From a virus (taxonomy: Duplodnaviria; Heunggongvirae; Uroviricota; Caudoviricetes), in IMG/VR virus record IMGVR_UViG_2718217897_000010, positions 1 to 16,044 of that record: a stretch of 16,044 nucleotides of DNA, one strand, 5' to 3'. Positions 1 to 14,790 of this stretch are shown piece after piece. Made by a program: the position numbers and the translations under genes. How positions within the stretch are numbered: position 1 is the first letter of the stretch; every line of letters starts with the position of its first letter. The notes beneath the pieces were generated by a model. It was given only the letters and a program-made list of their open reading frames with translations. It searched no databases and was not told the DNA's origin.

Positions 1-642
1 TTATGTTTTTGCAATAGTTAAACCAGATCGTTTAATATACTCATCTAACGTGCCAGAGGTGTCATGTATTTTCGCAACATGATAATTGAGTAAGCTAATT
101 TCTTTAGTTTGTAATTTTGGTGGAGGAATATCCGCTCTACCGCCATCCACAGATACCAATAAAAACCTGTCTAGGAATGCTCCGTCGTAATAAAGCTCAT
201 ACCAATATCCAGTTGCTCTGGGATCTGGATAATTGTTAGCCCAATCTTCTATAAAATTTTCACATTGAATTCCTTCATCAATGAACTTGGCTCGAAAACG
301 AAGACGTGGGTCTTCTTTAAGGAATCGTTCGCTAGCCCATTCCCTTGAAATCCCATGCCAATCTTGAGATGGTTCAGTTTTGGGTATGAAATTTAAGATT
401 TCCTCATATGTCATATCTCTGACAGGTTTACGTTCTGGTAAAAAATATTCTGCTACCGATGGGCTGGCTAAGAACAATGAACTAAGCATTCCCAGAGCGA
501 ATGCGATAGGTTCTATATCAAATCCTGATATCCAAAAAAAAGCTGCTATCAAAGCGGCCCCGAAAAAAATCCCCCCCAATACTCTAAGGGGATGTTGATA
601 TTGTTTTATCCATAACCAGATTGGTGTTAACTTAATTTTCAT
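1..642 (-). CDS. hypothetical membrane protein (213 aa): two predicted N-terminal TM helices, then ~150-aa soluble domain
   Basis: Complete ORF with stop codon at 1-3 and ATG at 642. Hydrophobic stretches VLGGIFFGAALIAAFFWISGF and IAFALGMLSSLFLASPSV near the N-terminus. AT-rich coding sequence. No family recognised. Confidence 0.5.
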   Translation of the reverse strand: MKIKLTPIWLWIKQYQHPLRVLGGIFFGAALIAAFFWISGFDIEPIAFALGMLSSLFLASPSVAEYFLPERKPVRDMTYEEILNFIPKTEPSQDWHGISREWASERFLKEDPRLRFRAKFIDEGIQCENFIEDWANNYPDPRATGYWYELYYDGAFLDRFLLVSVDGGRADIPPPKLQTKEISLLNYHVAKIHDTSGTLDEYIKRSGLTIAKT

Positions 643-1153
643 CTGCCATTCCGATTTGTCTAACTTATTTAGAATTAAGAGGTTGAAATTAAGAATAGAT
701 AATCATACTCACTACGGGCTTTGAATTTTGATATTACAATTATTTCATTTTATTTTCAATTAATTATACGTTATTTATTGAACAAGTTTCCATGCCCTCA
801 GTTAACCAAAATGTCCGTTTCTAGCACACAGCAGCCCTATAGACAGTGGAGTAAAGTCATGGAGGATCGGTGGGAGGAGATGCAAATCCTCTCATACAAA
901 AAATACGTAAAATCTATAACAGCTGGAAATCATTCAATACTCGCACTATTGGAAGTTCACCAGCCAACCGCAGCACGTTCTTGCATACGACGTGCCTGCG
1001 GTTTCAACTCCCGCCAGCTCCACCAATCATGATTGGGTGGCGTAAGGATAATACCAACAAAAACAGCAAGTTATCAGTCCAAGCAGGACACCAACCAGAC
1101 GGTGAGGATACAAAAAAAGATACGCAAAGGAGCCGCGGTGCCCTAGTGACTTG

Positions 1154-1176
1154 AAAGCCCACAGATGTGGGCTTTT
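1154..1176 (+). terminator. putative rho-independent terminator (stem AAAGCCCAC / GTGGGCTTT, loop AGAT, followed by TTTTAT)
   Basis: Perfect 9-bp inverted repeat with GC core read directly from sequence; T-run on the plus strand. Not attached to any convincing upstream gene. Confidence 0.4.
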
Positions 1177-1368
1177 ATGGAATAAAGTACTTGAACCAAC
1201 AGCAAGAAATCAGTCTTGATGCTAAGTACTAGTGATGAAGCCACAACAACTGCTCTCATAAAAACGAAGACACTTATCGTGCCACCATCAAAATCTTTGT
1301 GAGTGTATCCATTTCTTTTTACTTGAACAGAGAAAACAATAATGCTGCTTATTTGCACAGTAAAATAA

Positions 1369-1388
1369 TACTGTATACAAACACAGTG
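1369..1388. promoter_or_regulatory. LexA (SOS) box-like operator TACTGTATACAAACACAGTG
   Basis: Matches the CTGT-N8-ACAG core and 16 of 20 positions of the E. coli LexA consensus TACTGTATATATATACAGTA. Overlaps plausible -35/-10 hexamers on both strands (plus strand TTGCAC-17-TACAAA). Confidence 0.5.
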
Positions 1389-1587
1389 TAGAGGAAGTTT
1401 TATGCATATTCCAACTAGCATGAATGTCTTTCTGTCATAAAATTAATGTCTGTTATAAGCAGTGAGCCCAACCGATGCATGCAGCACATAGCGAACCCAA
1501 ATTACAGCCTTTACAGCCACTATTGTTCACCATTAGACAGATGCGAACATTTTCCTGTATGAAGATATTTAGACTGCTTTTATTTGT

Positions 1588-2685
1588 CTAAAAATTCTCT
1601 CTCTTGTGCTGCATTTTACTCTTATTTTCAAGCATAAGAAACATTGCTGCATTTTGCTCCCAAGATATTTTAGATAAAAACATTTTTTTAGAAAATGATT
1701 GTTCCAATTCTCCCAAAAACGAATCAAGCCACCAATAATATTCCCATCCCTTAGTTGTTAATAAAGACTTGGCATTAAAATCCACTGTAACTACCAAACC
1801 TACTGAATAAATTGAAAATGAATTAAACTCTCTACCCAAATAAAGATTTCCAAATTTCATTGGTAGATTAGCCCCGAATCCCTCGAACACAGGGCGATAA
1901 TTAATCTTAAATCTTTTAGTAACAATACTTATACTAGAGTCGCTCTCTCTTGTGAGCGAACTACTTTTGGGAAGAACTATTTCAAAATGGTCAAAAATTG
2001 CGCCTCCATTGCCATATGCATATACAACTTTACCTATAGATGGTAAAGAACTATAATCCATAAATTGCTCACGTTCATCCATAGCTCTAGAAAAAGTATC
2101 AATAAATCTATTCCCCATAAGAACATCAGGAATACTTTTCCTATCTAGTTTAACCAAATAATCATCGGAAAAAGTTTCATCATCATTAAAATAGCTACTT
2201 AAATGAAGAGCAAGTTTTCTTAAAACATAATACTCAATCGCCTCAATAAATAGTGCATTTGCTTTCATTTTTTTGCTATTTATCCCCTTCCCTTTAAAAT
2301 CAAAAGCATAACCAATTGGCCCCTCAGTCCATGATTTATGAATAGCCTTATTTTCCGCGCATAATCCTTTTAGGTAACGGCTAACCTCTTCGGAAAAATC
2401 GTAGCCTTCAATTGATATCAACTCTTTTTTTTCATTGTCTAAACACACAACCCCCTCAAAATCATATTTCCCATTATTCATAGGATAGGCGTTACGCAGA
2501 AAGATTGTGGCACCTAAAATTATTAGTAGCGCACCAACAACAATCATTTTCAAAAATGACAAGTTAAAATAACCAACAACGCCTGATGACAGTATATTTA
2601 CGCCCAAGGCAATTAACACCGCAACAATGAACACTTCGAATATATTTGTTTTAACGGCTAGTAGATCTGCTATTTTTTTCTTCAT
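1588..2685 (-). CDS. hypothetical membrane-anchored protein (365 aa): two N-terminal TM helices plus ~300-aa soluble domain
   Basis: Long ORF in an AT-rich block. N-terminus MKKKIADLL followed by hydrophobic segments FIVAVLIALGVNILSSGVVGYF and MIVVGALLIILGATIFL. No recognisable catalytic motif. Confidence 0.6.
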   Translation of the reverse strand: MKKKIADLLAVKTNIFEVFIVAVLIALGVNILSSGVVGYFNLSFLKMIVVGALLIILGATIFLRNAYPMNNGKYDFEGVVCLDNEKKELISIEGYDFSEEVSRYLKGLCAENKAIHKSWTEGPIGYAFDFKGKGINSKKMKANALFIEAIEYYVLRKLALHLSSYFNDDETFSDDYLVKLDRKSIPDVLMGNRFIDTFSRAMDEREQFMDYSSLPSIGKVVYAYGNGGAIFDHFEIVLPKSSSLTRESDSSISIVTKRFKINYRPVFEGFGANLPMKFGNLYLGREFNSFSIYSVGLVVTVDFNAKSLLTTKGWEYYWWLDSFLGELEQSFSKKMFLSKISWEQNAAMFLMLENKSKMQHKRENF

Positions 2686-2739
2686 AGTGCACCCAATCCA
2701 ACTTATACTCTCATCATTAGCCTACGGCCAAACTCAAAT

Positions 2740-2757
2740 TTGCACTCTTATGTGCAA
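2740..2757. promoter_or_regulatory. inverted repeat TTGCAC-N6-GTGCAA in the upstream region of the 365-aa gene (possible operator)
   Basis: Palindromic hexamers read directly, 55-70 bp upstream of the ATG at 2685 (minus strand). Function is inferred only. Confidence 0.2.
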
Positions 2758-3085
2758 TTGGACCCTCAACACTACAACTTTTATATCTTTATTACAATGC
2801 ATTAAATATAGAGTAGTTAGCTAAGTGCAACGATAGGACAGAATTGTACCCGAAGCACAATATCTACAAACGGTTTAACATTAGTTGCAAGTGCGGACCA
2901 CTTTTTCTATCTGCCTATATTTTCAGGCTGCTGCTGGTCGGTAGTTTCTATGTATAGCCGCTTTCACCGTCAATGACGCATAAAGTCTATCTTTCCCTAC
3001 TTACTGATGAATCAGAACGCGACATTCCACTCATCCTCAGAATCCCTCAGAAGGTTCAATATAACGCCAAGCACCGAAGTTCCGC

Positions 3086-3424
3086 TTATGAGTGAACATG
3101 ATGAACAACTATATCTTGCCCTGTTCTATGGGGATACCAACCACAATAGTGGGACAAACCGCCATTAATTAACTCATGCTCTAAATCTTCGTCCACCAGC
3201 ACGACAAGATGCCGCATACTGCGCCCCAGTCGGTCCAGTTTCCAGACCACCAGCGTATCACCTGCCGATAATGTCCTGAGCAGTTTTTTCAGTCCAGGCC
3301 TTTCGGACTTTGTACCGCTTATCTTGTCTTCAAAAATCAGCTCGCATCCTGCACAGTTCAGCGCATTACGTTGTAGATCTGTGTTCTGGTCATTTGTTGA
3401 CACACGTACATAGCCAATAAGCAT
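3086..3424 (-). pseudogene. DNA invertase (serine recombinase, Hin/Gin/Pin family), 3'-truncated
   Basis: Translation from the ATG at 3424: MLIGYVRVSTNDQNTDLQRNAL...GDTLVVWKLDRLGRSM, the classic invertase N-terminus including the catalytic Ser in RVSTNDQ. The ORF stops after ~112 codons and the C-terminal HTH DNA-binding domain is missing in all frames. The track ORF start at 3460 adds 12 non-homologous residues. Confidence 0.75.
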
Positions 3425-3450
3425 GGTAGATCTCCCTGACAAAAGCAGGA

Positions 3451-3843
3451 ATGATGCCATTTGCTCGTTATTTCTGCATTTTCATAAACGTTGGTTTGGG
3501 AGAAGCGGCCAAATTGCCTGCGATTAGTGGCTCTTTATCATCATCTGGCTGGATAAAAATCCCTGTTATAGAGGGGAAGTCTTTTATTATCCAATGGGGA
3601 AGAATCGGACCTTCTGATAGTAAAACTGGTGTTGCAACAGGAAGTTATCCTATTGCTTTTCCAAATTCTGCATTTATGGCATTTATTGCTGAAAAAACCG
3701 CAGTATCCACAGGCCCAATAGGTATTAATTCCTGGGGAGTATCCGAACTAACAAAAACAGAATTAAAGGCCATTTGTGCTGCAAGGACTATATCAACTTC
3801 AGCCGCAACTGAAACAGGTGATTTTCTGGTACTGGGATATTGA
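3451..3843 (+). pseudogene. side tail fibre C-terminal (variable, receptor-binding) segment; lacks the 5' constant part
   Basis: Contains IIQWG and PIAFPN motifs typical of lambdoid/Mu-type tail-fibre C-termini. Begins at the crossover site. Its stop overlaps the start of the downstream tail-fibre assembly gene (ATGA). No upstream constant tail-fibre region is present on this strand. Confidence 0.6.
3479..3504. other. invertase crossover site-like 26-bp imperfect palindrome (hix/gix/pix-like)
   Basis: TTTTCATAAACG-TT-GGTTTGGGAGAA. The reverse complement TTCTCCCAAACCAACGTTTATGAAAA matches about 20 of 26 positions of hixL as I recall it (TTCTTGAAAACCAAGGTTTTTGATAA). It lies next to the invertase gene and inside the 5' end of the tail-fibre segment, as expected for such switches. 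Confidence 0.45.
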
Positions 3844-4313
3844 GCTTCCATAAGGATTATAAAATGTCGAGCATAATATACTACAGCTCTATAAATAATG
3901 CATTTTACCCTGAGCATTTGAAACAAGAATATATTAAATCTAATTCTTTTCCAGCAGATGCAAAACCCGTTAAATATTCTGTTTTCGAAGAATTTGCACT
4001 TAAACCAGCACCAGAAGGAAAATACAGGTGCGTTGGTGAAGATGGAATGCCATCATGGGCAGATATTCCACCACCAACACATGAGGAACAGATTGCCGCA
4101 GCCGAATTGAAAAAGCAGCAATTGATTAACCAGGTCAACGAATACATGAACAGTAAACAATGGCCCGGTAAAGCGGCTATTGGTCGTCTGAAAGGTGAGG
4201 AACTGGCGCAATATAATCTGTGGCTGGATTACCTGGACGCACTGGAAATGGTCGATACTTCCAGTGCTCCAGATATTGAATGGCCTACGCCTCCGGCAGT
4301 TCAGGCCAGATGA
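3840..4313 (+). CDS. tail fibre assembly protein (Tfa family)
   Basis: 157 aa. N-terminus YYSSINNAFYPEHLKQEY and C-terminus LWLDYLDALEMVDTSSAPDIEWP are typical of Tfa/gpU-type chaperones. Translationally coupled to the fibre segment upstream. Confidence 0.8.
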   Translation: MSFHKDYKMSSIIYYSSINNAFYPEHLKQEYIKSNSFPADAKPVKYSVFEEFALKPAPEGKYRCVGEDGMPSWADIPPPTHEEQIAAAELKKQQLINQVNEYMNSKQWPGKAAIGRLKGEELAQYNLWLDYLDALEMVDTSSAPDIEWPTPPAVQAR

Positions 4314-4722
4314 CATCTGGCGCGGTGCTGGTATCAGTTGCCGTCACCGCGTCAATGTAATCCAGCACAGCGTTAAGGCGGGTTGTTTCTGTCTGCGTCA
4401 GTTTACGTCCGGCCTGCAATTTCAGTTGAATCAGACTGATGGAAGCCATTGCTGCATCAATTAGTAACTGGCGCTGTGCTTCTGCCGCGTCTACTGCGGC
4501 ACTGTGTTGTGCCTCAGTGTCTGTCACCCATTTCTCACCATCCCATTTATCGTATGGCGTTAACGGTGAAAGCGTGACATAACCGTCTTTGATGGCACCG
4601 ATATAATCCACTGTAACAGCTGCGCCATTTTCGATTGAGTAAACAGTCTCATTGCGATGGTCTTCTTCATGGCTCCATCCCTTACCTGTAAATATTGGCA
4701 TGGGGTAAGATTTCCGGCTCAT
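4285..4722 (-). CDS. tail fibre assembly protein (Tfa family), second copy in opposite orientation
   Basis: 145 aa. C-terminus AVLDYIDAVTATDTSTAPDVIWPELPEA is the conserved Tfa motif. Converges on the plus-strand Tfa with a 29-bp 3' overlap, as in Mu G / e14 P invertible segments. Confidence 0.75.
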   Translation of the reverse strand: MSRKSYPMPIFTGKGWSHEEDHRNETVYSIENGAAVTVDYIGAIKDGYVTLSPLTPYDKWDGEKWVTDTEAQHSAAVDAAEAQRQLLIDAAMASISLIQLKLQAGRKLTQTETTRLNAVLDYIDAVTATDTSTAPDVIWPELPEA

Positions 4723-5222
4723 GATTCGTTAATTTTCAGAAACGGGTTAGTGGCTTTCTTCTGCCCCGCCAGGCCAATCAGACGCTGGCGGCTGCTGGGG
4801 TCGAGTCCGAGCATTGCCCCCGTGCTGCTCATCTCGGACTCCTGTTCTTTTTTGGCGGTCAGCTCCGGATTTTTGACCCTGCCGCCCATTGCACCGGTGA
4901 TGGTGTTGCCCTGTATGGCAATATTTTTCACGGCACGTCGCCAGAACTCATAGGCCACGCACCACCGCTCAAGTACCGCCAGGTCAGTCACGCACAGCAG
5001 ACCCTGACCGCAGAGTTCTTTGGTTGTCAGTTGCCACATGATCGTGGCGAGAGGGAGATCTTCTTCAGCGAACCACTCCGGTGGCTCAACACCTTTGATG
5101 GGCGTAAAAACAGGTTCATCTTTGTTCAGGGCTCGCTTGCCGGGGTTTCCGGCCAGCGCCTTGCGCGCCGTTGGCTTGGGGCGACGCCCGGAACGCCCCG
5201 CCGTTCCAGCCATATGCGGCAC
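4719..5222 (-). CDS. phage terminase small subunit (P27-family-like)
   Basis: 167 aa. N-terminus MAGTAGRSGRRPKPTARKALAGNPGKRALNKDEP is characteristic of P27-type TerS. Its stop overlaps the start of the Tfa gene (ATGA), so no large terminase or structural genes follow. Confidence 0.65.
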   Translation of the reverse strand: MPHMAGTAGRSGRRPKPTARKALAGNPGKRALNKDEPVFTPIKGVEPPEWFAEEDLPLATIMWQLTTKELCGQGLLCVTDLAVLERWCVAYEFWRRAVKNIAIQGNTITGAMGGRVKNPELTAKKEQESEMSSTGAMLGLDPSSRQRLIGLAGQKKATNPFLKINES

Positions 5223-5338
5223 TCCTGGTTAAATTTCATTTTTCGCGGGTATAAAAAAACGATGGGGCGGGCAGTCCGGAAGACGTCAGGCCGCAGGGAT
5301 TTGACCCGCCCCTCCCCTCAAGCAGTTGAGAATTATTA
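5223..5338. other. putative cos / packaging-initiation region between HNH and terS
   Basis: Intergenic, with GC-rich inverted repeat GGGGCGGG (5264-5271) ... CCCGCCCC (5305-5312). HNH-cos-terS is the usual order in HK97-like cos phages (from memory). Confidence 0.3.
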
Positions 5339-5689
5339 TCACTTCAACCGTTCACGGGCCGTCTTCGCCTTATGACACGGCCAGCACAGACTCTGCAGAT
5401 TACGGTCGGCATCAGTGCCGCCATGCGCTTTAGGAATGATGTGGTCAACGGTTTTCGCCTCGCGCACCACACCGGCACGCAAACACAACTGACACAGGCC
5501 TTTGTCACGCTTCAGCACACGCGCGCGGATAACGTCCCACTTCGAACCATAACCGCGCTGATGACGGGATTGTCCTGGCTTGTATTGCTTCCAGCCTTCG
5601 CCTTTGTGTTGCTTGCAATAACCTGACGGGTCTGTGGTTGTCGATCGGCAGCCGCGAACACGGCAGGCTTTTGGTGTTCGTGGTGGCAT
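5339..5689 (-). CDS. HNH endonuclease (phage packaging-associated)
   Basis: 116 aa. Cys pairs CRVRGC and CQLC, plus DHIIPKAHGG ... NLQSLCWPCH, make up an HNH/zinc-finger motif. Located immediately upstream of terS. Confidence 0.8.
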   Translation of the reverse strand: MPPRTPKACRVRGCRSTTTDPSGYCKQHKGEGWKQYKPGQSRHQRGYGSKWDVIRARVLKRDKGLCQLCLRAGVVREAKTVDHIIPKAHGGTDADRNLQSLCWPCHKAKTARERLK

Positions 5690-5764
5690 TGAAATATTCT
5701 CTCTGATACTGCTCGCACGATATGCATAAAAACCTCCAACAGGCGGTTTATGTGTAGACGTATC

Positions 5765-6676
5765 TCAGTACTTAAATAAGAATTTGCTATTACTTTGAAA
5801 TTGAGATGGTGTGGTTGCAATCGGACTAGATGTCGCAGCTATCTCTTCAAGTAACTCAGCTTTCCAGACATGCCCTAGTTGCAAAGATTCACTATGCGAC
5901 ACTTTGTATTCTGCAGCACTAACGACTTGTTCTAAGAAAAGATCACTGTTTAGCATTTGCATACTTGCATAAACGCCAAGGAAATGAATTTTCATTCCCA
6001 TATCCATGATCATATTCCCTTCTTTTGTAAGATAACCACTGTGCGTGACATAGAATGCCGGAGAGCCTGACATTCCAGGGAAAGCAGAAATATCGACAAC
6101 TATTAATTTCTTCCCATCGAAATCGATATCTGGCTCACTCGCTAAGCTTCCTGTTTTCCATATTGGAAGGTAGTGAGTCGTGTCATGATAACCATGAGGA
6201 TATCCAATCATTACAACAGGAGATGAGGGGTTTATCTGGACATTAGGCAGTGTCGTTGTTTTTGAGACTACTTTTACTCCTGTGTTTACAAACAACTCTT
6301 GAGGCAAAGGCATCAAGATAATGTCTGCCTCTTTATCTGTGGGGTGCTCCAACCACAGCGGTGAACCATCTTTAAACAGAGGCATCGTATGTTTGAATAG
6401 TTTTCCGGTTTTATCTCTCAGCTGAATATCAATACTATCGCCTATAAATGGCTTTACACCCCTTTCGGATGGGCTGATTCCAGTTATTACATGATAGTTA
6501 GTTGCAAGGAAAATGAAACCATTGCTATGTTGATAAAAGAACCCAGTACCTAACGACTTTGACTCTCCATTAGACCTCAAAATTACTAAAGTAGTTACCA
6601 GAGATAGCGGCTGTACGTTTTGCATAAAATTCATCCAACATGAACTTCGATATAGGTTGTAAAAGCATACAATCAT
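5765..6676 (-). CDS. trypsin-like (chymotrypsin-fold) serine protease, cytoplasmic; start codon uncertain
   Basis: Candidate catalytic triad in the canonical order: His in ATNYHVITG, Asp in EADIILMPL, Ser in GMSGSPAF (GDSGGP-like). No signal peptide. AT-rich. Alternative starts at internal Met15 or Met18 (MNFMQNV). Confidence 0.6.
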   Translation of the reverse strand: MIVCFYNLYRSSCWMNFMQNVQPLSLVTTLVILRSNGESKSLGTGFFYQHSNGFIFLATNYHVITGISPSERGVKPFIGDSIDIQLRDKTGKLFKHTMPLFKDGSPLWLEHPTDKEADIILMPLPQELFVNTGVKVVSKTTTLPNVQINPSSPVVMIGYPHGYHDTTHYLPIWKTGSLASEPDIDFDGKKLIVVDISAFPGMSGSPAFYVTHSGYLTKEGNMIMDMGMKIHFLGVYASMQMLNSDLFLEQVVSAAEYKVSHSESLQLGHVWKAELLEEIAATSSPIATTPSQFQSNSKFLFKY

Positions 6677-6742
6677 TCCAGAAAATTCTTAACCAACTAT
6701 TTCCAATATATGAATCGCCAATTCCGATCTAGCTATATAACC

Positions 6743-7015
6743 TCACTTTTCAGCAGAGTTTTTCTCCGAAAGCAGGTGCTCACTCTTTCTAATGTCTAAC
6801 TTATCCCTATTACAAGACGCCAGCGCCGACAACAGGCTTACGTTCAAATCCAGGCTCCCACTCCATGTCAGCGGGTCGGGGATAGCTGGTTGCGGAGTTT
6901 CAGCGGTCAGATTCGCTAGTAGTGGTACCGCCGAAACTGGTACGTAAACTGTCCGCGTACCGGCGCAGCCGTTCAGCTGCACGAGCAGGAACAGGACGGG
7001 CAGCGCAATCATCAT
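6743..7015 (-). CDS. Rz1-like o-spanin (outer-membrane lipoprotein), overlapping the 3' end of Rz in a different frame
   Basis: MMIALPVLFLLVQLNGC followed by a proline-rich mature region (VPVSAVP, TPQPAIPDP). Starts inside Rz and runs past its stop. Lipobox LNGC is non-ideal and the signal peptide lacks a basic residue; the start may instead be the in-frame ATG at 7081. Confidence 0.4.
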   Translation of the reverse strand: MMIALPVLFLLVQLNGCAGTRTVYVPVSAVPLLANLTAETPQPAIPDPLTWSGSLDLNVSLLSALASCNRDKLDIRKSEHLLSEKNSAEK

Positions 7016-7292
7016 TCGCAAAAGCCATTTTGATATCAGCCTGGGTTCTCTGTGACTCCAGTGCGATCTGCTGTTTTGCATGCTGGTTAGCCTCCAGTAC
7101 TGTATTGACGATTTGTAGTGATTGCAGGACGTTATTAGTAATGGCAGTTGCCGATTTGGCATTTTGTACAGCCTCATCAGCACGTTTCTTTTCGTGCTGA
7201 TATTTGCTGTAGTAGTGGTTGGTTGACCAGATGAAAGAACAGACGACAGTTAAAAGGAAAGCAGCGATAATCAGCTTATAGCTCAACTTCAT
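6900..7292 (-). CDS. Rz-like i-spanin
   Basis: 130 aa with one N-terminal TM helix (LIIAAFLLTVVCSFIW) and a charged, probably coiled-coil periplasmic domain. Immediately downstream of the endolysin and overlapping it. Confidence 0.55.
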   Translation of the reverse strand: MKLSYKLIIAAFLLTVVCSFIWSTNHYYSKYQHEKKRADEAVQNAKSATAITNNVLQSLQIVNTVLEANQHAKQQIALESQRTQADIKMAFANDDCAARPVPARAAERLRRYADSLRTSFGGTTTSESDR

Positions 7293-7752
7293 TTACCACC
7301 CCACCAGCCTCTTTAAACCTGGCAATCAGGTCACCGATTTTATGTTCATACTGACCATAACCAGCGCCCGGCAGTGAAGCCCAGATATTGCTGCAACGGT
7401 CGATTGCCTGACGGATATCACCGCGATCAATCATCGGTAAAGCGCCACGCTCTTTAATCTGCTGTAATGCCACGGAGTCCTGGCTTCTGGGAGAGAAGTC
7501 TTTCAGCCCTAGCTGCTTGCGGTAGGCATCCCACCAACGGGAAAGAAGCTGGTAACGTCCGGCTGCTGTTGATTTGAGTTTCGGGTTTAGCGTGACAAGT
7601 TTGCGAGGATGATCGGAGTAATCAGTAAACAGTTCACCACCGACAATGACATCATAACCGTGGTTACGTGTCGGTTGTCGCCCGTTATCCGTTCCTTCTG
7701 ACCATGCAACCATATCCAAGAAAGCTTTACGCTGGGAATTTAGTGCCTGCAT
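7276..7752 (-). CDS. R: endolysin, lambda R-like lytic transglycosylase
   Basis: 158 aa. NSQRKAFLDMVAWSEGTDNGRQPTRNHGYDVIVGGELFTDYSDHPRKLVTLNPKLKS ... is near-identical along its length to lambda R as I recall it, including the catalytic Glu in WSEGT. Confidence 0.9.
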   Translation of the reverse strand: MQALNSQRKAFLDMVAWSEGTDNGRQPTRNHGYDVIVGGELFTDYSDHPRKLVTLNPKLKSTAAGRYQLLSRWWDAYRKQLGLKDFSPRSQDSVALQQIKERGALPMIDRGDIRQAIDRCSNIWASLPGAGYGQYEHKIGDLIARFKEAGGVVNEVEL

Positions 7753-7755
7753 AAA

Positions 7756-8082
7756 TTACTCCTTCGAGCTACCAAATTTGTTACCGATTACTCGCATTGC
7801 AGCCCCACGAATTGCATCGACACCAATCAGCCCAACACCGCCACCAATGGCAACAGAAAGAGATTTAGGCCATCCGACATACTCAAGAGCGGATGCAAAA
7901 GTCAGCGTCAGAGCACCACAGAGCAAAATCTCGAGCGTTTTTCGTTTCCAGCCACCACCACCGCCAAAATAGGCAATGCGCAAGCCAGCCATAACGATCG
8001 ACATAATCACTGCGCCCAGCGGTGTGTCTCCACGCCACCAGCTCTGGAACAACTCCAGCCAGGTATTTGGGTTATGAGGCAT
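7756..8082 (-). CDS. holin (class I, three TM segments, lambda S-like size)
   Basis: 108 aa with three hydrophobic segments and a charged C-terminus (NKFGSSKE). Sits directly upstream of the endolysin with 3-bp spacing. Confidence 0.7.
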   Translation of the reverse strand: MPHNPNTWLELFQSWWRGDTPLGAVIMSIVMAGLRIAYFGGGGGWKRKTLEILLCGALTLTFASALEYVGWPKSLSVAIGGGVGLIGVDAIRGAAMRVIGNKFGSSKE

Positions 8083-8234
8083 TTGTAGTTATCTCTCACC
8101 TCGCTGATACAGCAGGTGCAAATTGAGGGAACATCATGTACAGCAAATTAGAAGCGGAAACGTCAAAGAAGCCGAACCAATGGATAACTGCGGAATAGAC
8201 CAGGACCAACGAATCCCCAGCCCCAGAAACGACA

Positions 8235-8256
8235 AAACCCGCTCGACGGCGGGTTT
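8235..8256 (-). terminator. putative intrinsic terminator on the minus strand upstream of the holin (tR'-like position)
   Basis: Hairpin AAACCCGC-TCGACG-GCGGGTTT. On the minus strand the GC stem is followed by TTTTGTCGTTTCT. Confidence 0.35.
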
Positions 8257-8367
8257 AAGCTGTGTGGCGAAGTAACCACTCTTAACACGATACAATAATT
8301 TTTGCGTACGCGTTAGCGTTTTTGTAAGATTAACAAATAAATCGAAAAATCATAATCGGATGATTTC

Positions 8368-9390
8368 ATGGCAAAATTAAATGCTAGCGAAAGACTCGTT
8401 ACTCATCATAGTCTGACCATTGACACAAAGTTTAGAACCAAGGCAACACAAGAGGTAAAAGCCCAGTGTATATGTCCTGTTCCGGAAATGTACATGCTTG
8501 CCCCATTGATTGTTAAACAAAAGGGACTCGTTCATTCATATGATTCTGGGAATATTGTAGTTACTCTCCAAGATGTACAACTTTATCCTTTACTTCCAGA
8601 TAACTCACCCACGCATATTGTCCTTCTTATTAATAGTGTTGATAAAAATGGAAGTACTACCGTTGTAAAAAATATAAATACTAATGAACGCGTTGAAATC
8701 CAACCAAAATATGAACAAGGTGAAGGCTATGAAGTTTCTACCTATGTTGTCATATCATTAAATGGAAATAAAAGAACCTATGATATGATTTGTACATCTA
8801 CCCCAGGTGTATCTACGGCCCGGTTAAATAGTTTTTTAGACAAAATTCTCTTTGAAGTGGCGAAAGACAATGAAGACTTATTTACCGCAAAACATCCAAC
8901 TAACGTTATTTCTGCAACATCAAAAAAAGAAGTAAAAATACGATACAAACCAATATTTGAATTTACAGGAATGTTAGACAAGGAGCTTTTTAATAAAATA
9001 AGCCAAAAAGGATTATCAGATGTCATATTAGTCAAGGATCAATTCGGAACAATTAATGCTCCTGATGTTAACTCACCTTACATTCCGACTGAAAGTACAT
9101 TAAAATTACTTCCAAATCATGGTGACAATGTTATTGGATGGATTAAAAATGTAGCATCTCATTTCAATAAAAAAATGAATGGTGGTTATGATAAATTAAA
9201 GGTTAAATTCCAAGATCCTGAAACAAATAAACCAAGGCAGGTTGATTTCAAAACCTCAAACATCAATCTTAATAATTTAGAAAAAACATTTATTAAGAAA
9301 AGCATTATCGATAACTTTAATTCGCGCCTGAAGGATTCATATGTTAAAATTGAGCTAGAGTTTGTTGTGAAAATGATAGATTTGATGTGA
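8368..9390 (+). CDS. hypothetical soluble protein (340 aa), first gene of an AT-rich two-gene cargo operon
   Basis: ORF with ATG at 8368. Strongly AT-rich, Asn/Lys/Ser/Thr-rich, no TM segment, no recognisable NTPase, nuclease or NTase motif. 7-bp gap to the downstream gene, which has its own SD (GTGAGG). Confidence 0.6.
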   Translation: MAKLNASERLVTHHSLTIDTKFRTKATQEVKAQCICPVPEMYMLAPLIVKQKGLVHSYDSGNIVVTLQDVQLYPLLPDNSPTHIVLLINSVDKNGSTTVVKNINTNERVEIQPKYEQGEGYEVSTYVVISLNGNKRTYDMICTSTPGVSTARLNSFLDKILFEVAKDNEDLFTAKHPTNVISATSKKEVKIRYKPIFEFTGMLDKELFNKISQKGLSDVILVKDQFGTINAPDVNSPYIPTESTLKLLPNHGDNVIGWIKNVASHFNKKMNGGYDKLKVKFQDPETNKPRQVDFKTSNINLNNLEKTFIKKSIIDNFNSRLKDSYVKIELEFVVKMIDLM

Positions 9391-9397
9391 GGTTATT

Positions 9398-9982
9398 ATG
9401 CCAATACTTTCAGTTTTCTCTCATCTAGGCAAGCCGTTTGGATATCTTTTTATTAAAGGTATTAGCGGCAAAGCTGCATATGATTGGGTAGCGCCAATTC
9501 TACTTACTTCTATCACAGCAGTACTTTTCATTCTATTAAAAATCCCTGTCAAAGATTTATTTGATGACAATGGTTTCATTAAATCAATCGTTTCATTTAT
9601 CTCTAACCTACCAGGGTTTTATATTGCCGCTCTGGCCGCCATAGCAACTTTCAATAGAGCTGAGATTGATTTACCATTGATTAGCAATGAAAGAAATGCC
9701 TCTATTGAAATAAAAGTAACAAAAGAAAATGGAAAAGTAGTAAATTCAGAGGAGGTTCTGACCAGACGATTATTTCTTTGCATGCTATTCTCTTTTTTAA
9801 CAGCATTAAGCATTGTTATAATAATACTTAATGCTATATTTTCACCATTAATCAATGTCTATCAAAACAGTTTTGTTTTAATGGTTTATACTGTTGTATT
9901 TACTTTCCTCGTTTGGCAACTCTTAGTATCAACTTTCTTTGGATTATATTATCTCGGAAACAGAATTCATATGAATTATTAA
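9398..9982 (+). CDS. hypothetical integral membrane protein (194 aa, four predicted TM helices)
   Basis: Hydrophobic segments at about residues 30-49, 64-85, 125-148 and 159-186, with a ~40-residue charged loop between TM2 and TM3. Coupled to the upstream 340-aa gene. Confidence 0.6.
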   Translation: MPILSVFSHLGKPFGYLFIKGISGKAAYDWVAPILLTSITAVLFILLKIPVKDLFDDNGFIKSIVSFISNLPGFYIAALAAIATFNRAEIDLPLISNERNASIEIKVTKENGKVVNSEEVLTRRLFLCMLFSFLTALSIVIIILNAIFSPLINVYQNSFVLMVYTVVFTFLVWQLLVSTFFGLYYLGNRIHMNY

Positions 9983-10002
9983 GCCCTACAGGGGCTTAAT
10001 AA
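9976..10002. repeat. 11-bp perfect inverted repeat TTATTAAGCCC-TACAG-GGGCTTAATAA spanning the stop codons of two convergent genes
   Basis: Read directly. The left arm contains the TAA stop of the 194-aa gene (9980-9982) and the spacer/right arm contains the TAG stop of the Q-like gene (9986-9988). Confidence 0.6.
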
Positions 10003-10378
10003 TCAACAAAATACCTTCAATCACTCCTATTGCTGCTTGAAGTTGTTTTCTGATTGACCCGTCAGAGCATTTCCGTTTCTTTGCTATTGAACGGAGTGAA
10101 ATACCGATAACAAAGTGAGCAATGATCAGTTCATATTCTTCTGGCTTATATTTCCGCATTCGCGCAACACAGCTGTCAATCATGATTCCTTCATCATCAT
10201 CGCATTGTTGGCGTGTTTTCTTTCCATGAGGTAGTAAACCTTTAAACCCTGCAGCAACAGGCTGCCAGTCCACACCACTGTTAACCGCGGGAAAATTTCC
10301 GAAGAAGACACCACCGAAACGCCGATGTATGTCAATCGCGGTGGTCGCCTGACTATTCTGCAGGAAGACCAGGGACAA
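9986..10378 (-). CDS. Q-like late antiterminator (phage 21/QuuD-type); non-ATG (TTG) start, possibly defective
   Basis: 130 aa containing AAGFKGL, CDDDEGIMIDSCVARM and CSDGSIRKQLQAAIGVIEGIL, which resemble phage-21-type Q proteins as I recall them. The ORF begins with TTG directly after an in-frame TAA; the first internal ATG is at codon ~66. Confidence 0.5.
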   Translation of the reverse strand: MSLVFLQNSQATTAIDIHRRFGGVFFGNFPAVNSGVDWQPVAAGFKGLLPHGKKTRQQCDDDEGIMIDSCVARMRKYKPEEYELIIAHFVIGISLRSIAKKRKCSDGSIRKQLQAAIGVIEGILLIIKPL

Positions 10379-10497
10379 TTACTGACTCTTGCCGGTGAGC
10401 CTGACGGAAAATTACGCGCAGCAGGTCATTAATATCGTTCTTAATTAACTGATTATTTATCTCATCACTGAATATCTTTATATAGTGAGGACTTATT

Positions 10498-11322
10498 ATG
10501 TCTCAGAACTTAGACGCAACCGCAATTAATCAAATCCATGCCCTTATTTCTGCTCAGGGTGTTAATGAAATTATCAGTAAGATTGGTGCCGATGCTGTGG
10601 CATTGCCTGAGAATTTCCGCATTCATGATCTGGAAAAATTTAATTTAAATCGCTTCCGTTTCCGTGGTGCGCTTTCCACTGCCAGCATCGATGACTTTAC
10701 CCGTTATTCTAAAGATCTTGCAGATGAAGGCACCCGCTGCTTTATCGATGCTGATAATATGCGTGCCGTCAGTGTACTTAACCTGGGTACTATTGATGAA
10801 CCAGGTCACGCAGATAACACCGCCACTCTCAAACTGAAAAAGACAGCACCGTTCTCTGCCCTGTTGTCTGTTAACGGCGAGCGTAACTCCCAGAAGTCAC
10901 TGGCAGAATGGATCGAAGACTGGGCCGACTACCTTGTGGGCTTTGATGCTAATGGTGATGCCATTCAGGCAACAAAAGCGGCTGCGGCAGTCCGTAAAAT
11001 CACGATTGAAGCAAACCAGACCGCTGATTTTGAAGACAATGACTTCAGCGGCAAACGCTCCCTGATGGAGTCTGTCGAAGCGAAGACCAAAGATATTATG
11101 CCTGTGGCATTTGAATTTAAATGCGTTCCGTTTGAAGGCCTGAAAGAACGTCCGTTTAAATTACGCCTCAGCATTATCACTGGCGATCGTCCTGTACTGG
11201 TTCTGCGCATTATTCAGCTGGAAGCAGTGCAGGAAGAAATGGCTAACGAATTTCGTGATCTGCTTGTTGAGAAATTCAAGGACAGCAAAGTAGAAACCTT
11301 TATTGGTACTTTCACCGCCTGA
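10498..11322 (+). CDS. DUF2303 / YfdQ-like prophage early-region protein
   Basis: 274 aa with good SD (GTGAGGA). Sequence resembles the CPS-53 prophage YfdQ family (from memory). Confidence 0.7.
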
Positions 11323-11334
11323 TTTCATTACTGC

Positions 11335-11356
11335 AAATGCCCCTGCGGGGGCATTT
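11335..11356 (+). terminator. putative terminator hairpin AAATGCCCC-TGCG-GGGGCATTT after the YfdQ-like gene
   Basis: 9-bp perfect inverted repeat 13 bp past the stop. The T-run is short and partly inside the stem, so strength is uncertain. Confidence 0.35.
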
Positions 11357-11449
11357 ATGGAAACGTAATTGACTCAATAATCGCCGGATGGTGAGGGCTT
11401 CCTTTTACCAGAATTCAGCGCGGTGCAGCGCATATACGTGGAGAACAAA

Positions 11450-11986
11450 ATGTCATTTATTAAAACTTTTTCCGGGAAGCATTTTTATTATGACAGGATA
11501 AATAAAGACGACATCGTTATTAACGATATCGCGGTTTCTCTTTCAAATATCTGTCGCTTTGCAGGGCATCTTTCACATTTCTACAGCGTTGCCCAACATG
11601 CGGTGCTTTGCAGCCAACTGGTACCGCAGGAATTTGCTTTTGAAGCGTTAATGCATGATGCAACAGAAGCGTATTGCCAGGACATCCCGGCGCCACTGAA
11701 ACGCCTTCTTCCTGACTATAAACGGATGGAAGAAAAAATAGATGCAGTAATCCGTGAGAAATACGAGTTGCCCCCGGTTATGAGCACGCCTGTGAAATAT
11801 GCCGATCTAATCATGCTGGCAACCGAACGCCGTGATCTCGGGCTTGATGATGGCTCTTTATGGCCTGTACTGGAAGGTATCCCGGCAACAGAGATGTTCA
11901 AAGTTATTCCACTGGCACCGGGCCATGCCTACGGGATGTTTATGGAACGCTTCAACGAGTTATCGGAATTACGCAAATGTGCATAA
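11450..11986 (+). CDS. HD-domain metal-dependent phosphohydrolase (YfdR-like 5'-deoxynucleotidase family)
   Basis: 178 aa from the ATG at 11450, preceded by GGAGA. Contains the HD motif in ALMHDATEAY. The track ORF start at 11423 is GTG and adds 9 residues. Confidence 0.75.
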   Translation: MSFIKTFSGKHFYYDRINKDDIVINDIAVSLSNICRFAGHLSHFYSVAQHAVLCSQLVPQEFAFEALMHDATEAYCQDIPAPLKRLLPDYKRMEEKIDAVIREKYELPPVMSTPVKYADLIMLATERRDLGLDDGSLWPVLEGIPATEMFKVIPLAPGHAYGMFMERFNELSELRKCA

Positions 11987-12855
11987 CTCATGTAGTTAGT
12001 TTTTCTGGCGGGAGAACATCCGCATATCTTGTTCACCTGATGGAAGAACAAAGAAAGGCTGGCAATAACGTCTGCTACATCTTTATGGATACCGGTTGCG
12101 AACATCCGCTGACATACCGCTTTATCCGGGAGGTTGTGAAGTTCTGGGACATACCACTAACTGTGTTACAGGTCGATATAAATCCTGAGCTTGGGCAGCC
12201 AAATGGTTATACAGAATGGGAGCCAAAGGATATTCAGACACGAATGCCGGTGCTTAAACCGTTTATGGACATGGTTAAAAAGTACGGCACGCCATACATC
12301 GGCGGCGCGTTCTGTACTGATAGGCTAAAACTCATCCCTTTCACGAAATACTGCGATAACCATTTCGGGCGAGGTAATTACATCACATGGCTGGGTATTC
12401 GTGCAGACGAACCCCGTAGGCTGAAACCGAAATCGGGCGTCCGGTATCTTGCCGAGCTGTCAGATTTTGATAAGTCGGATGTTATCCGGTGGTGGCGAAA
12501 ACAACCTTTTGATTTGCAAATCCCGGAGCATCTCGGGAACTGTGTTTTCTGCATCAAAAAGTCAACGCAAAAGCTGGGGCTTGCATGTAAAGACGAACCA
12601 GGTCTGATGCGAGTTTTTAATGAGCTGGTTACAGGCAAACACGTCAGGGATGGTCATCGCAGAACAGGTAAAGACATTATGTACCGTGGTCACCTGACGC
12701 TTGACGGAATTGCCAGAATGTCTGCCAACAGCGACTACAGAAATTTGTATCAGGCGATGGTACAGGCCAGGCGATTCGATACCGGCTCGTGTTCAGAGTC
12801 ATGTGAAATCTGGGGTGATCAATTGGAATTGGAATTCAAAGAGGTAGGGGTATGA
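11977..12855 (+). CDS. PAPS-reductase-like (PP-loop ATP pyrophosphatase superfamily) protein
   Basis: PP-loop motif SFSGGRTS near the N-terminus. Start MCITHVVSFSGG at 11977 overlaps the upstream stop. C-terminal cysteines (CVFC, CSESC). Confidence 0.7.
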   Translation: MCITHVVSFSGGRTSAYLVHLMEEQRKAGNNVCYIFMDTGCEHPLTYRFIREVVKFWDIPLTVLQVDINPELGQPNGYTEWEPKDIQTRMPVLKPFMDMVKKYGTPYIGGAFCTDRLKLIPFTKYCDNHFGRGNYITWLGIRADEPRRLKPKSGVRYLAELSDFDKSDVIRWWRKQPFDLQIPEHLGNCVFCIKKSTQKLGLACKDEPGLMRVFNELVTGKHVRDGHRRTGKDIMYRGHLTLDGIARMSANSDYRNLYQAMVQARRFDTGSCSESCEIWGDQLELEFKEVGV

Positions 12856-13196
12856 CAACCGAAATTAACTACCATGCACTGCTTGAGCGCGCACGGAATA
12901 AAGTGCAGAGCATTGAGTTCGCCTTAACACAGAGTGCATTCGCTGAGATTCGCGCTGAGCTTGAAAATGATTTAGAACTGGCACGGATTGCACTGGCATC
13001 TCTGGAAGTTGAGCCAGATGAACGCGCAGCCTATGAATTATTTATGGAAAAGCGTTTCGGTAAAACAGTCGATCGTCGGAGAGCAAAAAACGGCGATAAC
13101 GAATACATGGCATGGGATATGACTCTCGGTTGGATCGTCTGGCAGCAACGAGCTGGTATCCATTTTTCAACAATGTCACAGCAAGAGGTGAAATAA
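12852..13196 (+). CDS. hypothetical early-region protein (114 aa)
   Basis: Translationally coupled on both sides: ATGA overlap with the upstream gene and TAATG overlap with xis. Confidence 0.55.
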   Translation: MTTEINYHALLERARNKVQSIEFALTQSAFAEIRAELENDLELARIALASLEVEPDERAAYELFMEKRFGKTVDRRRAKNGDNEYMAWDMTLGWIVWQQRAGIHFSTMSQQEVK

Positions 13197-13546
13197 TGGA
13201 GCCATACAGCCTCACACTCGATGAGGCCTGTCATTTTCTCAAGATATCCAGACCGACTGCCATTAACTGGATACGCACAGGGCGTCTTCAGGCAACACGC
13301 AAAGATCCCACTAAGAATAAATCTCCTTACCTCACAACACGACAAGCCTGCATTGCGGCTCTTCAGTCTCCGCTGCATACTGTCCAGGTGAGCGCGGGTG
13401 ATGGCATAACAGAGGAAAGAAAATGTCACTCTTCCGCAGAGGTGAAATATGGTACGCCAGTTTCACATTGCCGAACGGTAAAAGATTTAAACAGTCTCTT
13501 GGAACAAAGGACAAAAGGCAGGCGACAGAACTCCATGACAAGCTAA
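13196..13546 (+). CDS. xis: excisionase (P22 Xis-like)
   Basis: [38 protein letters not shown] is an HTH excisionase N-terminus. About 116 aa, overlapping the 5' end of int in another frame, as in P22. Confidence 0.7.
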
Positions 13547-14586
13547 AGGCTGAAGCATGGCGGGTCAGCAAACTTGGTGAAATACCTGATATAACGTTCG
13601 AGGAAGCGTGTGTCAGGTGGCTTGAAGAGAAAGCACATAAAAAATCACTGGACGATGACAAAAGCCGGATCGGATTCTGGCTTCAACATTTCGCAGGAAT
13701 GCAACTAAGAGACATTACTGAATCAAAAATTTATTCAGCAATGCAGAAAATGACGAACCGGCGTCATGAGGAAAACTGGAAACTCAGGGCAGAAGCATGC
13801 AGAAAAAAAGGGAAACCTGTTCCAGAATACACGCCAAAACCAGCGTCCGTTGCAACGAAGGCTACGCATCTTTCATTTATAAAGGCCCTACTAAGAGCCG
13901 CAGAGCGTGAATGGAAAATGCTGGATAAGGCACCAATTATTAAAGTGCCTCAACCAAAGAATAAACGGATCCGCTGGCTGGAGCCCCATGAAGCACAAAG
14001 GCTGATTGATGAATGTCCGGAGCCATTAAAGTCTGTTGTTGAATTTGCACTGGCAACAGGCTTAAGACGCTCGAACATCATCAACCTTGAATGGCAACAA
14101 ATAGACATGCAGCGCCGGGTGGCATGGATAAACCCGGAAGAGAGTAAATCAAACCGCGCAATTGGCGTTGCGCTGAATGATACTGCATGTCGCGTATTGA
14201 AAAAACAAATCGGGAATCATCACCGTTGGGTATTTGTGTACAAGGAAAGCTGTACCAAACCAGACGGAACGAAAGCGCCAACGGTCAGGAAGATGCGGTA
14301 TGACGCAAACACAGCCTGGAAAGCGGCGCTGAGACGGGCTGGTATTGATGATTTCAGATTTCACGACTTGAGACACACCTGGGCAAGCTGGCTGGTTCAA
14401 GCCGGAGTCCCGTTGTCAGTGTTACAGGAAATGGGAGGCTGGGAGTCTATCGAAATGGTTCGTCGATATGCTCACCTTGCACCTAATCACCTTACCGAAC
14501 ACGCACGGCAAATAGACTCGATCCTGAACCCATCGGTCCCAAATTTGTCCCAGTCAAAAAATAAGGAAGGTACTAATGATGTGTAA
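13423..14586 (+). CDS. int: tyrosine site-specific integrase (P22 Int-like, 387 aa)
   Basis: N-terminus [49 protein letters not shown]-terminal catalytic region [39 protein letters not shown] carries the conserved H-x-x-R and Tyr. Ends 14 bp from the tRNA 3' end. Confidence 0.9.
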
Positions 14587-14600
14587 CTTATTGATTTAAA

Positions 14601-14676
14601 TGGTGCCGATAATAGGAGTCGAACCTACGACCTTCGCATTACGAATGCGCTGCTCTACCAACTGAGCTATATCGGC
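14601..14676 (-). tRNA. thrW: tRNA-Thr (anticodon CGU)
   Basis: The reverse complement folds as a canonical cloverleaf: acceptor stem GCCGATA/TATCGGC, anticodon loop TTCGTAA, T-arm GGTTCGACTCC, 3' CCA encoded. Confidence 0.95.
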
Positions 14677-14790
14677 CCTGAAAGGACATGTTCACGAACG
14701 TGAATCACGGTGGACAAGGTTAAAACTAACCGGGCGATGCGTCAATGGCCTTGTGAATCAAATGGCTACTTTTGCATCACCCGGTTTTAT

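Follow-up and report, generated by a model that had tools for sequence, protein, structure and literature searches.

A small membrane-hairpin protein of an Escherichia coli prophage end as a candidate single-gene anti-phage defence protein

Transmembrane (TM) effectors of anti-phage systems disrupt membranes under the control of a trigger or a ligand, which results in abortive infection (PMC9122126). They are a precedent for the TM proteins discussed here. The terminal and cargo slots of prophages and satellites are known reservoirs of defence genes (PMC9122126), and the systems found in such hotspots include small TM proteins whose presumed role is that of a suicide effector (Rousset et al. 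2022, PMC9122126). SEFIR proteins are enriched in defence islands, and one of them protects against phi29 (Millman et al. 2022). Furthermore, 145 candidates called PDC systems have been nominated independently by their embedding in BREX, DISARM or type I restriction-modification (RM) loci (Payne et al., bioRxiv 10.1101/2024.01.29.577857). I analysed a stretch of 16,044 nucleotides of a Caudoviricetes record (IMG/VR record IMGVR_UViG_2718217897_000010, positions 1 to 16,044; hereafter the window), which is an E. coli prophage region beside thrW (tRNA-Thr, 14601-14676) and proA. The subject of this study is a gene for a protein of 213 amino acids (aa) at the left edge of the window. I tentatively propose that it encodes an anti-phage protein which works without a partner gene.

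The gene lies on the minus strand at 1..642. According to the list of open reading frames (ORFs) and the sequence, its stop codon is at 1-3 and its ATG at 640-642, so that the coding sequence is complete and the left edge of the window is exactly the 3′ end of the gene. Its G+C content is 39%, compared with about 50% in the chromosomal end or flank of the window. In E. coli genome annotation, the product is the hypothetical protein WP_001542678.1 (one residue different). The homologues form 137 clusters, nearly all of 204-254 aa, with 46-93% identity and 16 invariant residues, and thus the ORF is a genuine gene and not a chance one. An earlier reading of the letters without database searches (the sequence-only reading) had described a complete AT-rich ORF with two N-terminal TM helices followed by a soluble domain of about 150 aa. 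The first part of this description agrees with the data above, and the second with those below.

Kyte-Doolittle windows revealed hydrophobic segments at approximately residues 20-39 and 46-66, with maxima at the windows starting at 21 and 46. The AlphaFold2 model of the full-length protein (predicted local distance difference test score, pLDDT, 92.2; predicted template modelling score, pTM, 0.78) has helices at residues 3-14, 16-38 and 44-67, with pLDDT >90 for the TM helices, and then an alpha/beta domain. The mean numbers of K+R and D+E residues in 69 homologues are 3.3 and 0.8 before TM1, 0.5 and 1.8 in the loop, and 3.0 and 1.9 after TM2. This charge pattern indicates an N-in/C-in topology of the hairpin, so that the soluble part (approximately residues 68-213, about 146 hydrophilic residues) lies in the cytoplasm. 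The protein starts with a basic tail, predicted to be cytoplasmic (residues 1-19; 586..642, minus strand), which contains the short helix 3-14 of the AlphaFold2 model; residues 1-20 include four K/R and no D/E. The TM hairpin (residues 20-66; 445..585, minus strand), delimited by hydrophobicity, the positive-inside pattern and AlphaFold2, is the proposed effector part. Its loop, SGFDIEP (approximately residues 40-45), is acidic and periplasmic and has only about six residues. In the family alignment, W37, P61 and A64 are invariant, and G40 and E44 are near-invariant. The mean column identity is 0.64-0.74 in the hairpin and 0.68 in the soluble domain. Conservation at the level of the soluble domain would be expected of a hairpin that does more than anchor the protein, and it fits an active role.

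The hairpin is followed by a conserved basic linker, LPxRKPVRxM (residues 67-79; 406..444, minus strand), in which K72 and M77 are invariant and P69 and R71 near-invariant. The remaining part is the alpha/beta domain of about 135 aa (residues 80-213; 4..405, minus strand), which is the proposed sensor or regulatory part. It carries the motifs DW, FLKEDPRLR, WAN, LVSVDGGRAxLPxP and LDEYxxRSGL, and the stretch GYWYELYYDGAFLDRFLLVSVDGGRADIPPP, which the sequence-only reading had quoted, corresponds to residues 145-175. The cytoplasmic domain has no solved structural relative. Profile searches with the 213-aa protein returned no match in Pfam, NCBIfam, PHROGs or PDB sequences, so the protein still cannot be placed in a family, just as that reading had stated. 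The sole library match is a weak and partial one to the PADLOC model PDC-S50 (E 8e-4, 16.6 bits). A full-text literature search found no paper that mentions PDC-S50 or WP_001542678.

When 1.84 billion cluster representatives were searched exhaustively with the profile of the family, 889 clusters were obtained at E <=1e-3 and 330 at 1e-10, and most of the 889 match only profile positions ~80-216. The architectures were counted in the best 150 of the 889 clusters. The commonest class is the free-standing domain of about 135 aa (66/150), followed by the form with a two-TM (2TM) hairpin (37/150), while 19 clusters have an N-terminal domain of about 185 aa and about 10 have a single N-terminal TM helix; tandem duplications (for example P0156, with two matched stretches) and rarer large proteins were also found. 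In nearly all of the fusion carriers, the domain is C-terminal. The ~185-aa N-terminal domain, whose consensus is FYSWQSD...PNPNVLIELGYA...LPFDLRH, has sub-threshold matches to Pfam CAP12/Pycsar-TIR and a profile match to the solved bacterial SEFIR structure 5y8f (E 4e-4). One of the 150 clusters has SIR2, and two have TIR_2 or SEFIR. In the 959-aa protein P0167, the domain follows SIR2_2 (PF13289, 3.5e-23; LmuA/ThsA-like in PADLOC); TIR_2 (4.5e-18) is present in P0260, and P0252 has a bSEFIR match (1.8e-76). The domain region itself was unmatched by curated families in 10 diverse fusion proteins. In summary, the ~135-aa domain is a mobile module, preceded in different proteins by a TIR-like, TIR_2, SEFIR or SIR2 domain or by one or two TM helices. 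The sequence-only reading had suggested that a small 2TM-plus-domain protein is a defence effector format. This suggestion is strengthened by the sharing of the domain with those proteins and with PDC-S50, and by the cargo slots described below.

The residues conserved throughout the superfamily are W95, W134, Y202, P173, P175 and D166, that is, mostly aromatic residues and prolines with one Asp. This pattern looks like that of a binding site rather than a catalytic one.

The free-standing copies have about 131-163 aa and are about 33% identical to the 213-aa protein. One lies on plasmid NZ_CP030346.1 (locus L031, 339-830, plus strand), and 46 other plasmids carry such copies. Domain-only genes are among the few cargo genes of mobilizable Enterobacter and Klebsiella plasmids of ~4.8-5.1 kb. 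A Persephonella plasmid has one, and a Haematospirillum plasmid has one beside a RelE/HigA pair. Domain-only genes also adjoin ParAB, Tn3 and integrase genes, always as free-standing genes, and one is located beside a Gabija-like OLD-TOPRIM/UvrD pair. A toxin-antitoxin reading of the plasmid genes was rejected, as they form no operon with their neighbours.

Does the 213-aa gene have a partner? ORFs around family members were clustered by BLASTP, first at 30 and then at 38 loci, and no neighbour family was common to more than six loci. The families shared between the 38 loci are only integrases, IS3 and IS110 transposases (insertion sequence, IS) and LysR regulators, and any conserved neighbour was therefore rejected. 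The sequence-only reading had placed possible partner genes left of the window. In the six E. coli genomes with the 213-aa gene, there is only a convergent gene for a 252-aa protein and then the chromosome on that side. This gene was rejected as a partner, since it is independently mobile and only the closest relatives of the 213-aa gene have it alongside. Co-occurrence with the gene for a 365-aa protein (1588-2685, minus strand) had also been suggested. Only five of the 11 E. coli genomes that carry the 365-aa gene also have the 213-aa gene, and in one further genome the latter occurs without the former, so that this candidate was rejected as well. Because there is no recurrent neighbour and both adjacent genes are separable, the 213-aa gene behaves as a self-contained unit. 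That reading had counted the absence of a conserved neighbourhood against a defence role. Such a neighbourhood is indeed absent, but I take this as a sign that the gene is a self-contained unit and not as evidence against defence.

The gene is rare but widespread. It is present in six of 5426 complete E. coli genomes with >=99.6% DNA identity, and 27 loci with 37-72% identity were found among 185,579 species genomes (one genome per species). These belong to Gammaproteobacteria, Planctomycetota (Scalindua), Acidobacteriota, Bacteroidota, Chloroflexota, Nitrospirota, Verrucomicrobiota and Thermodesulfobacteriota. The 2TM family is thus spread over at least eight phyla, and its rarity, broad phyletic spread and high identity indicate horizontal transfer. 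Integrase or IS genes lie within 8 kb in 10 of 32 loci of the 2TM family, and the family is also found in chromosomal contexts without recognisable element genes. A Proteus homologue directly follows the integrase of an element at ssrA, whose other genes include those for AlpA, an Ash-family protein and a DUF927 primase. This element is satellite-like, and its slot next to the integrase is similar to the hotspot in which P4-like satellites carry defence genes (PMC9122126). In E. coli, the 213-aa gene takes the terminal cargo position in two different prophages. In five of the six genomes, the order is chromosome (paoD and a LysR fragment), the 252-aa gene (plus), the 213-aa gene (minus), the 365-aa gene (minus), a truncated pinE and tail-fibre genes. 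In the sixth, the 252/213 pair is at the end of a lambdoid prophage, and a gene for a 517-aa HNH protein replaces the 365-aa gene.

I also scanned 130 ORFs located within three genes of 26 family members, using PADLOC at 1e-5. About 10 of the 130 matched, and some of these matches are dubious. PDC-S20 lies 13 bp upstream of the homologue on the same strand at locus L023, a patatin-like phospholipase gene 36 bp downstream at L025, an ABC-ATPase of the mad3/AriA/HEC-01 type is adjacent at L030, a LeoA-like GTPase pair is adjacent at L018, and a ThsB-like protein is also among the direct neighbours. In all, about five loci have an adjacent defence-like gene. No BREX, DISARM or type I RM model was among the matches listed for these neighbours. 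At L012, a 196-aa ORF (8727-9317, plus strand) right after the homologue matches PDC-S50 positions 6-190 (2.7e-72) and stops 20 bp before an IS110 transposase gene. I rejected a split PDC-S50 here, since a PDC-S50-type neighbour truncated by the IS, ending so close to the IS110 gene, is a simpler explanation. The 196-aa ORF has no match among PDB sequences and no similarity to the TIR/SEFIR-like N-terminal domains; from its pattern E..WDFK...ANxxxxGxxYIVFGVxD, it may be AlbA_2/Schlafen-like.

Taking these observations together, I favour the reading that the 213-aa gene, as a cargo gene of prophages, satellites and islands, encodes a single-gene abortive-infection-type anti-phage protein whose sensor is cytoplasmic and whose effector is the membrane hairpin. 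This reading is given slightly less than an even chance. The architecture, the exchange of N-terminal modules, the genomic autonomy, the mobility and the cargo location are observed, as is the topology; that the constant C-terminal domain senses or regulates and that the interchangeable N-terminal parts kill is what I infer from them. At rest, the 213-aa protein would be inert. An infection cue, which may be a protein of the phage or perhaps a small nucleotide-like ligand, would be recognised by the C-terminal domain, and the recognition would alter the oligomeric state of the protein. The conserved hairpins would then compromise the inner membrane by depolarisation or leakage, and the damage would halt both the infected cell and the phage. 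In favour of this reading are the swaps of effector modules (2TM, 1TM, TIR-like, TIR_2, SEFIR and SIR2) on one C-terminal domain, the alignment of the domain to PDC-S50 in eight proteins, the autonomy in 38 loci, and the mobility and cargo location. The defence-like genes beside the homologues at several loci, the PDC-S45 and PDC-M53 candidates of the same prophage, the conservation of the hairpin and the residue pattern reminiscent of a binding site also speak for it.

Several points weigh against it. The commonest form of the domain is the free-standing one, on plasmids and mobile elements without an adjacent effector; these free-standing domains are not readily explained by a sensor-effector model and are its main weakness. 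The match of the 213-aa protein to PDC-S50 is weak (16.6 bits), PDC systems including PDC-S50 are themselves predicted candidates only (bioRxiv 10.1101/2024.01.29.577857), and the TIR-like label of the commonest fusion class rests on sub-threshold matches. The hairpin could do no more than anchor the protein in the membrane. Enrichment of defence genes in the neighbourhoods is modest and was obtained without a control set, and about two thirds of the loci have ordinary metabolic or regulatory neighbours, so that the enrichment is only suggestive.

A broader reading is that the ~135-aa domain is a new and widespread class of immune sensor with a role like that of SAVED, CARF and SLOG. It would recognise a phage component or a host- or phage-derived metabolite, without a linked synthase, by means of a fold unrelated to solved structures, and it would be wired to at least five killing modules, namely the membrane hairpin, TIR-like, SEFIR and SIR2 domains and the N-terminal domain of PDC-S50. 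The free copies would be decoys, sponges or regulators, and a matched pair of defence and counter-defence would have arisen from one fold. I consider this unlikely, though not to be neglected.

Two further explanations are rather improbable, and I rate them alike. According to the first, the protein is an orphan signal-responsive effector. Its domain would bind a diffusible small molecule, such as a nucleotide second messenger or an NAD-derived product, made by an unlinked system or by the phage. Its hairpin would then disrupt the membrane in the manner of the TM effectors of CBASS, Pycsar, type III CRISPR and Panoptes, although no synthase would be linked to it. The overall format is the same as that of TM effectors with a cytosolic ligand-binding domain, and effectors of the TM, TIR and SIR2 types accompany the SAVED, CARF, SLOG and cNMP sensors and the present domain alike. 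The conserved Trp/Trp/Tyr/Asp set could form a base-stacking pocket, and the free-standing domain proteins could be ligand sponges or regulators. A CD-NTase, pyrimidine cyclase, Cas10 or mCpol was not among the Pfam and PADLOC matches of the neighbours, and the 38 loci have no conserved neighbour.

According to the second, the domain serves a mobile element outside defence, and the 2TM form is a membrane-tethered version. The domain might, for example, be a binder in anti-defence or counter-defence, help the element to become established or to persist, or have a regulatory role. This would suit the dominance of the domain-only form (66/150) and its occurrence on mobilizable Enterobacter and Klebsiella plasmids of ~4.8 kb and beside ParAB, Tn3 and integrase genes. 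It would also suit the lack of any PHROGs match and of any homologue in 50,697 phage genome records, from which it follows that the gene belongs to integrated or plasmid elements and not to phage core genomes. However, NADase-type fusions to TIR, SIR2 and SEFIR are typical of defence and not of known anti-defence proteins, the membership in a defence candidate nominated by guilt-by-embedding points to defence, and the 2TM family also occurs in chromosomal contexts where no element genes are recognisable.

Superinfection exclusion is less probable still. Several classical exclusion proteins are small membrane proteins. The 213-aa protein is a small protein of the inner membrane as well, and its gene lies at a prophage end and has promoter-like sites of its own; it might block the DNA injection or another membrane step of incoming phages and spare the host. 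However, the large conserved part of the 213-aa protein is on the cytoplasmic side and the periplasmic loop is very short, the family is found in at least eight phyla and in non-prophage contexts, and the domain also occurs with soluble TIR and SIR2 partners and alone, which is a poor fit to a block of injection.

The two promoter-like sites of the sigma-70 type were found by a consensus scan 90-150 nt upstream of the ATG (731..792, minus strand). They are 792-763 (TGGAAA-18-TATAAT, 10/12) and 759-731 (TTGAAA-17-TAATAT, 9/12), and they are a possible promoter of the 213-aa gene itself. Terminator-like hairpins (1137-1123 and 1283-1269, minus strand; consensus matches only) lie between the 365-aa gene and these sites, which suggests that the 213-aa and 365-aa genes are separate transcription units. 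The scan also flagged a terminator-like hairpin inside the 213-aa gene at 557-577. This is the coding stretch for the conserved GGIFFG in TM1, which has A7 and then C7 on the plus strand (G7 and T7 on the coding strand). Homopolymer runs can be slippage-prone; no variation was found in these runs among the six E. coli copies.

Least probable of all is a two-gene system in which the 213-aa gene and the convergent 252-aa gene form a sensor-effector or toxin-antitoxin-like pair: the 252-aa gene adjoins the 213-aa gene about 72 bp away in six of six E. coli genomes and accompanies a diverged copy (93% and 91% identity) between ordinary chromosomal genes in an unrelated context, but it is absent beside all relatives at <=75% identity (27 GTDB loci, Proteus and L045), it is frameshifted in one E. 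coli genome where the 213-aa gene is intact, the two genes are not an operon because they are convergent, and its family (54 clusters) is found without any copy of the domain. The last point holds for 28 E. coli genomes, Klebsiella prophage ends, a P4-like satellite and a Yersinia island. The 252-aa gene is the last gene of the prophage, left of the window (copies at L002, 7170-7928, and L046, 3170-3928, plus strand). Its product has one TM helix and a coiled coil and matches no family in NCBIfam, PHROGs or PADLOC. The 252-aa family is distributed in Enterobacterales and Aeromonas and recurs in prophage-end and satellite cargo slots, where its neighbours include AbiH (P4-like satellite), an AbiU2-like HEPN gene (Yersinia island) and DinI. 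It is thus an uncharacterised cargo gene in its own right. The 251-aa neighbour of the Proteus homologue is unrelated to the 252-aa protein (E 3.1).

The 365-aa protein also has two N-terminal hydrophobic helices, followed by a domain of about 300 aa, and its gene has a G+C content of 33-35%. It has no match in Pfam, PADLOC, NCBIfam or PHROGs. Of the 5426 E. coli genomes, 11 have its gene, in every case next to a truncated pinE at the end of a prophage. The 365-aa gene is thus a second cargo gene of the 2TM-plus-domain form, independent of the 213-aa gene. The 517-aa protein that takes its place (L002, 9096-10649, minus strand) has a C-terminal HNH-like region (phrog_14240; a weak HNH PHROG match) and an N-terminal helix-turn-helix resembling sigma-70 region 4 (weak MzaA/RpoD matches), and it may be another defence-type nuclease.

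The window itself is composite. Its left part (1 to ~4700) corresponds to the end of a prophage that has a Mu/P2-like tail module, and its right part (4701-16044) to a lambdoid prophage at thrW. None of the complete E. coli genomes has the same overall arrangement or junction (best coverage 64%). The region 3086-5222 is a mosaic or a deletion derivative: a truncated pinE invertase gene (3086-3460) and tail-fibre-assembly fragments in both orientations (3840-4722) abut the small terminase subunit gene (4719-5222), with no head or tail structural genes between them. More than 4700 E. coli genomes contain DNA with about 84% identity to the intergenic-looking stretch 824-1270, and in some of them the matching part carries the annotation "AbiTii domain-containing protein". 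The stretch may thus be what is left of a prophage cargo slot, or a conserved boundary of one.

Other PDC candidates are present in the window. A 303-aa protein (5765-6676, minus strand) matches PDC-S45 (E 5.8e-42), a single-gene PADLOC candidate, as well as Trypsin_2 (Pfam, 3.7e-8) and phrog_7688. The gene of this trypsin-like serine protease type sits between the HNH/terS genes and the lysis genes. PDC-M53, a two-gene candidate in PADLOC, is represented by PDC-M53A/B matches of a 340-aa protein (8368-9390, plus strand, E 2.1e-32) and a 194-aa protein (9398-9982, plus strand, E 2.8e-54), the latter of which looks multi-TM. These two genes have a G+C content of 31-34%, lie between the lysis cassette and the Q antiterminator gene, and match PHROGs 9879 and 8257 (function unassigned).

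If the favoured reading of a single-gene abortive-infection protein is wrong, the 213-aa gene is one more prophage cargo gene, and many such candidates exist. If it is right, no member of the undescribed superfamily (889 clusters at 50% identity) is simpler than this gene, and a new recognition domain of unknown fold, wired to membrane, TIR, SEFIR and SIR2 modules, would be added to the bacterial immune toolkit. The PDC-S50 candidate and hundreds of "hypothetical proteins" would gain a function. The 213-aa protein would also be a very small, E. coli-native, single-gene model of how a cytoplasmic signal is converted to membrane damage. The free-standing copies on tiny plasmids raise the question whether mobile elements employ this fold to oppose defence or in concert with it.

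How does the 213-aa protein compare with the known systems? Like the 213-aa gene, PDC-S50 is a single-gene candidate, and the C-terminal domains of the 213-aa protein and seven relatives correspond to positions ~182-283 of its 387-position profile (E 8e-4 to 4e-10). However, residues 92-183 of the 213-aa protein cover only positions 184-272, about a quarter of the profile, and because the match is limited to this quarter at such a low score, the protein is not a member of PDC-S50. Moreover, the hairpin has no relation to the N-terminal half of PDC-S50 (positions 6-190), which is soluble. The N-terminal TM part and the C-terminal cytosolic domain are shared with Cap15 and 2TM-SAVED (Cap14) of CBASS, PycTM of Pycsar, CARF-TM and OptE of Panoptes. 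In contrast to the 213-aa gene, which has no conserved neighbour, these effectors are encoded beside a signal synthase, and their sensor folds (SAVED, CARF, cNMP-binding and the Cap15 beta-barrel) are not matched by the present domain.

The TM systems of prophage and satellite hotspots, such as the TIR + TM system of P2-like phage AC1 (PMC9122126), resemble the present case in the cargo position in temperate elements of Enterobacteria, and the E. coli 213-aa gene lies between a 1TM (252-aa) and another 2TM (365-aa) gene. They differ in that the 213-aa protein has no PADLOC match to a validated system (PADLOC scan only) and that its neighbouring TM genes move independently. The single-protein NADase defence proteins (bSEFIR, SIR2-type DSR/ThsA/LmuA-like and TIR) have the same logic of an N-terminal killing domain and a C-terminal recognition domain, and relatives of the present domain are C-terminal to SEFIR (P0252), SIR2 (P0167) and TIR_2 (P0260). 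The 213-aa protein has a hairpin in place of the NADase, and its domain is not among the sensors described for those proteins. Two features of a single-chain sensor-effector are seen, namely an effector module that is interchangeable among relatives and, by genomic evidence only, the lack of a conserved partner. The 213-aa protein is best described as a putative single-chain sensor-effector defence protein built on an undescribed domain.

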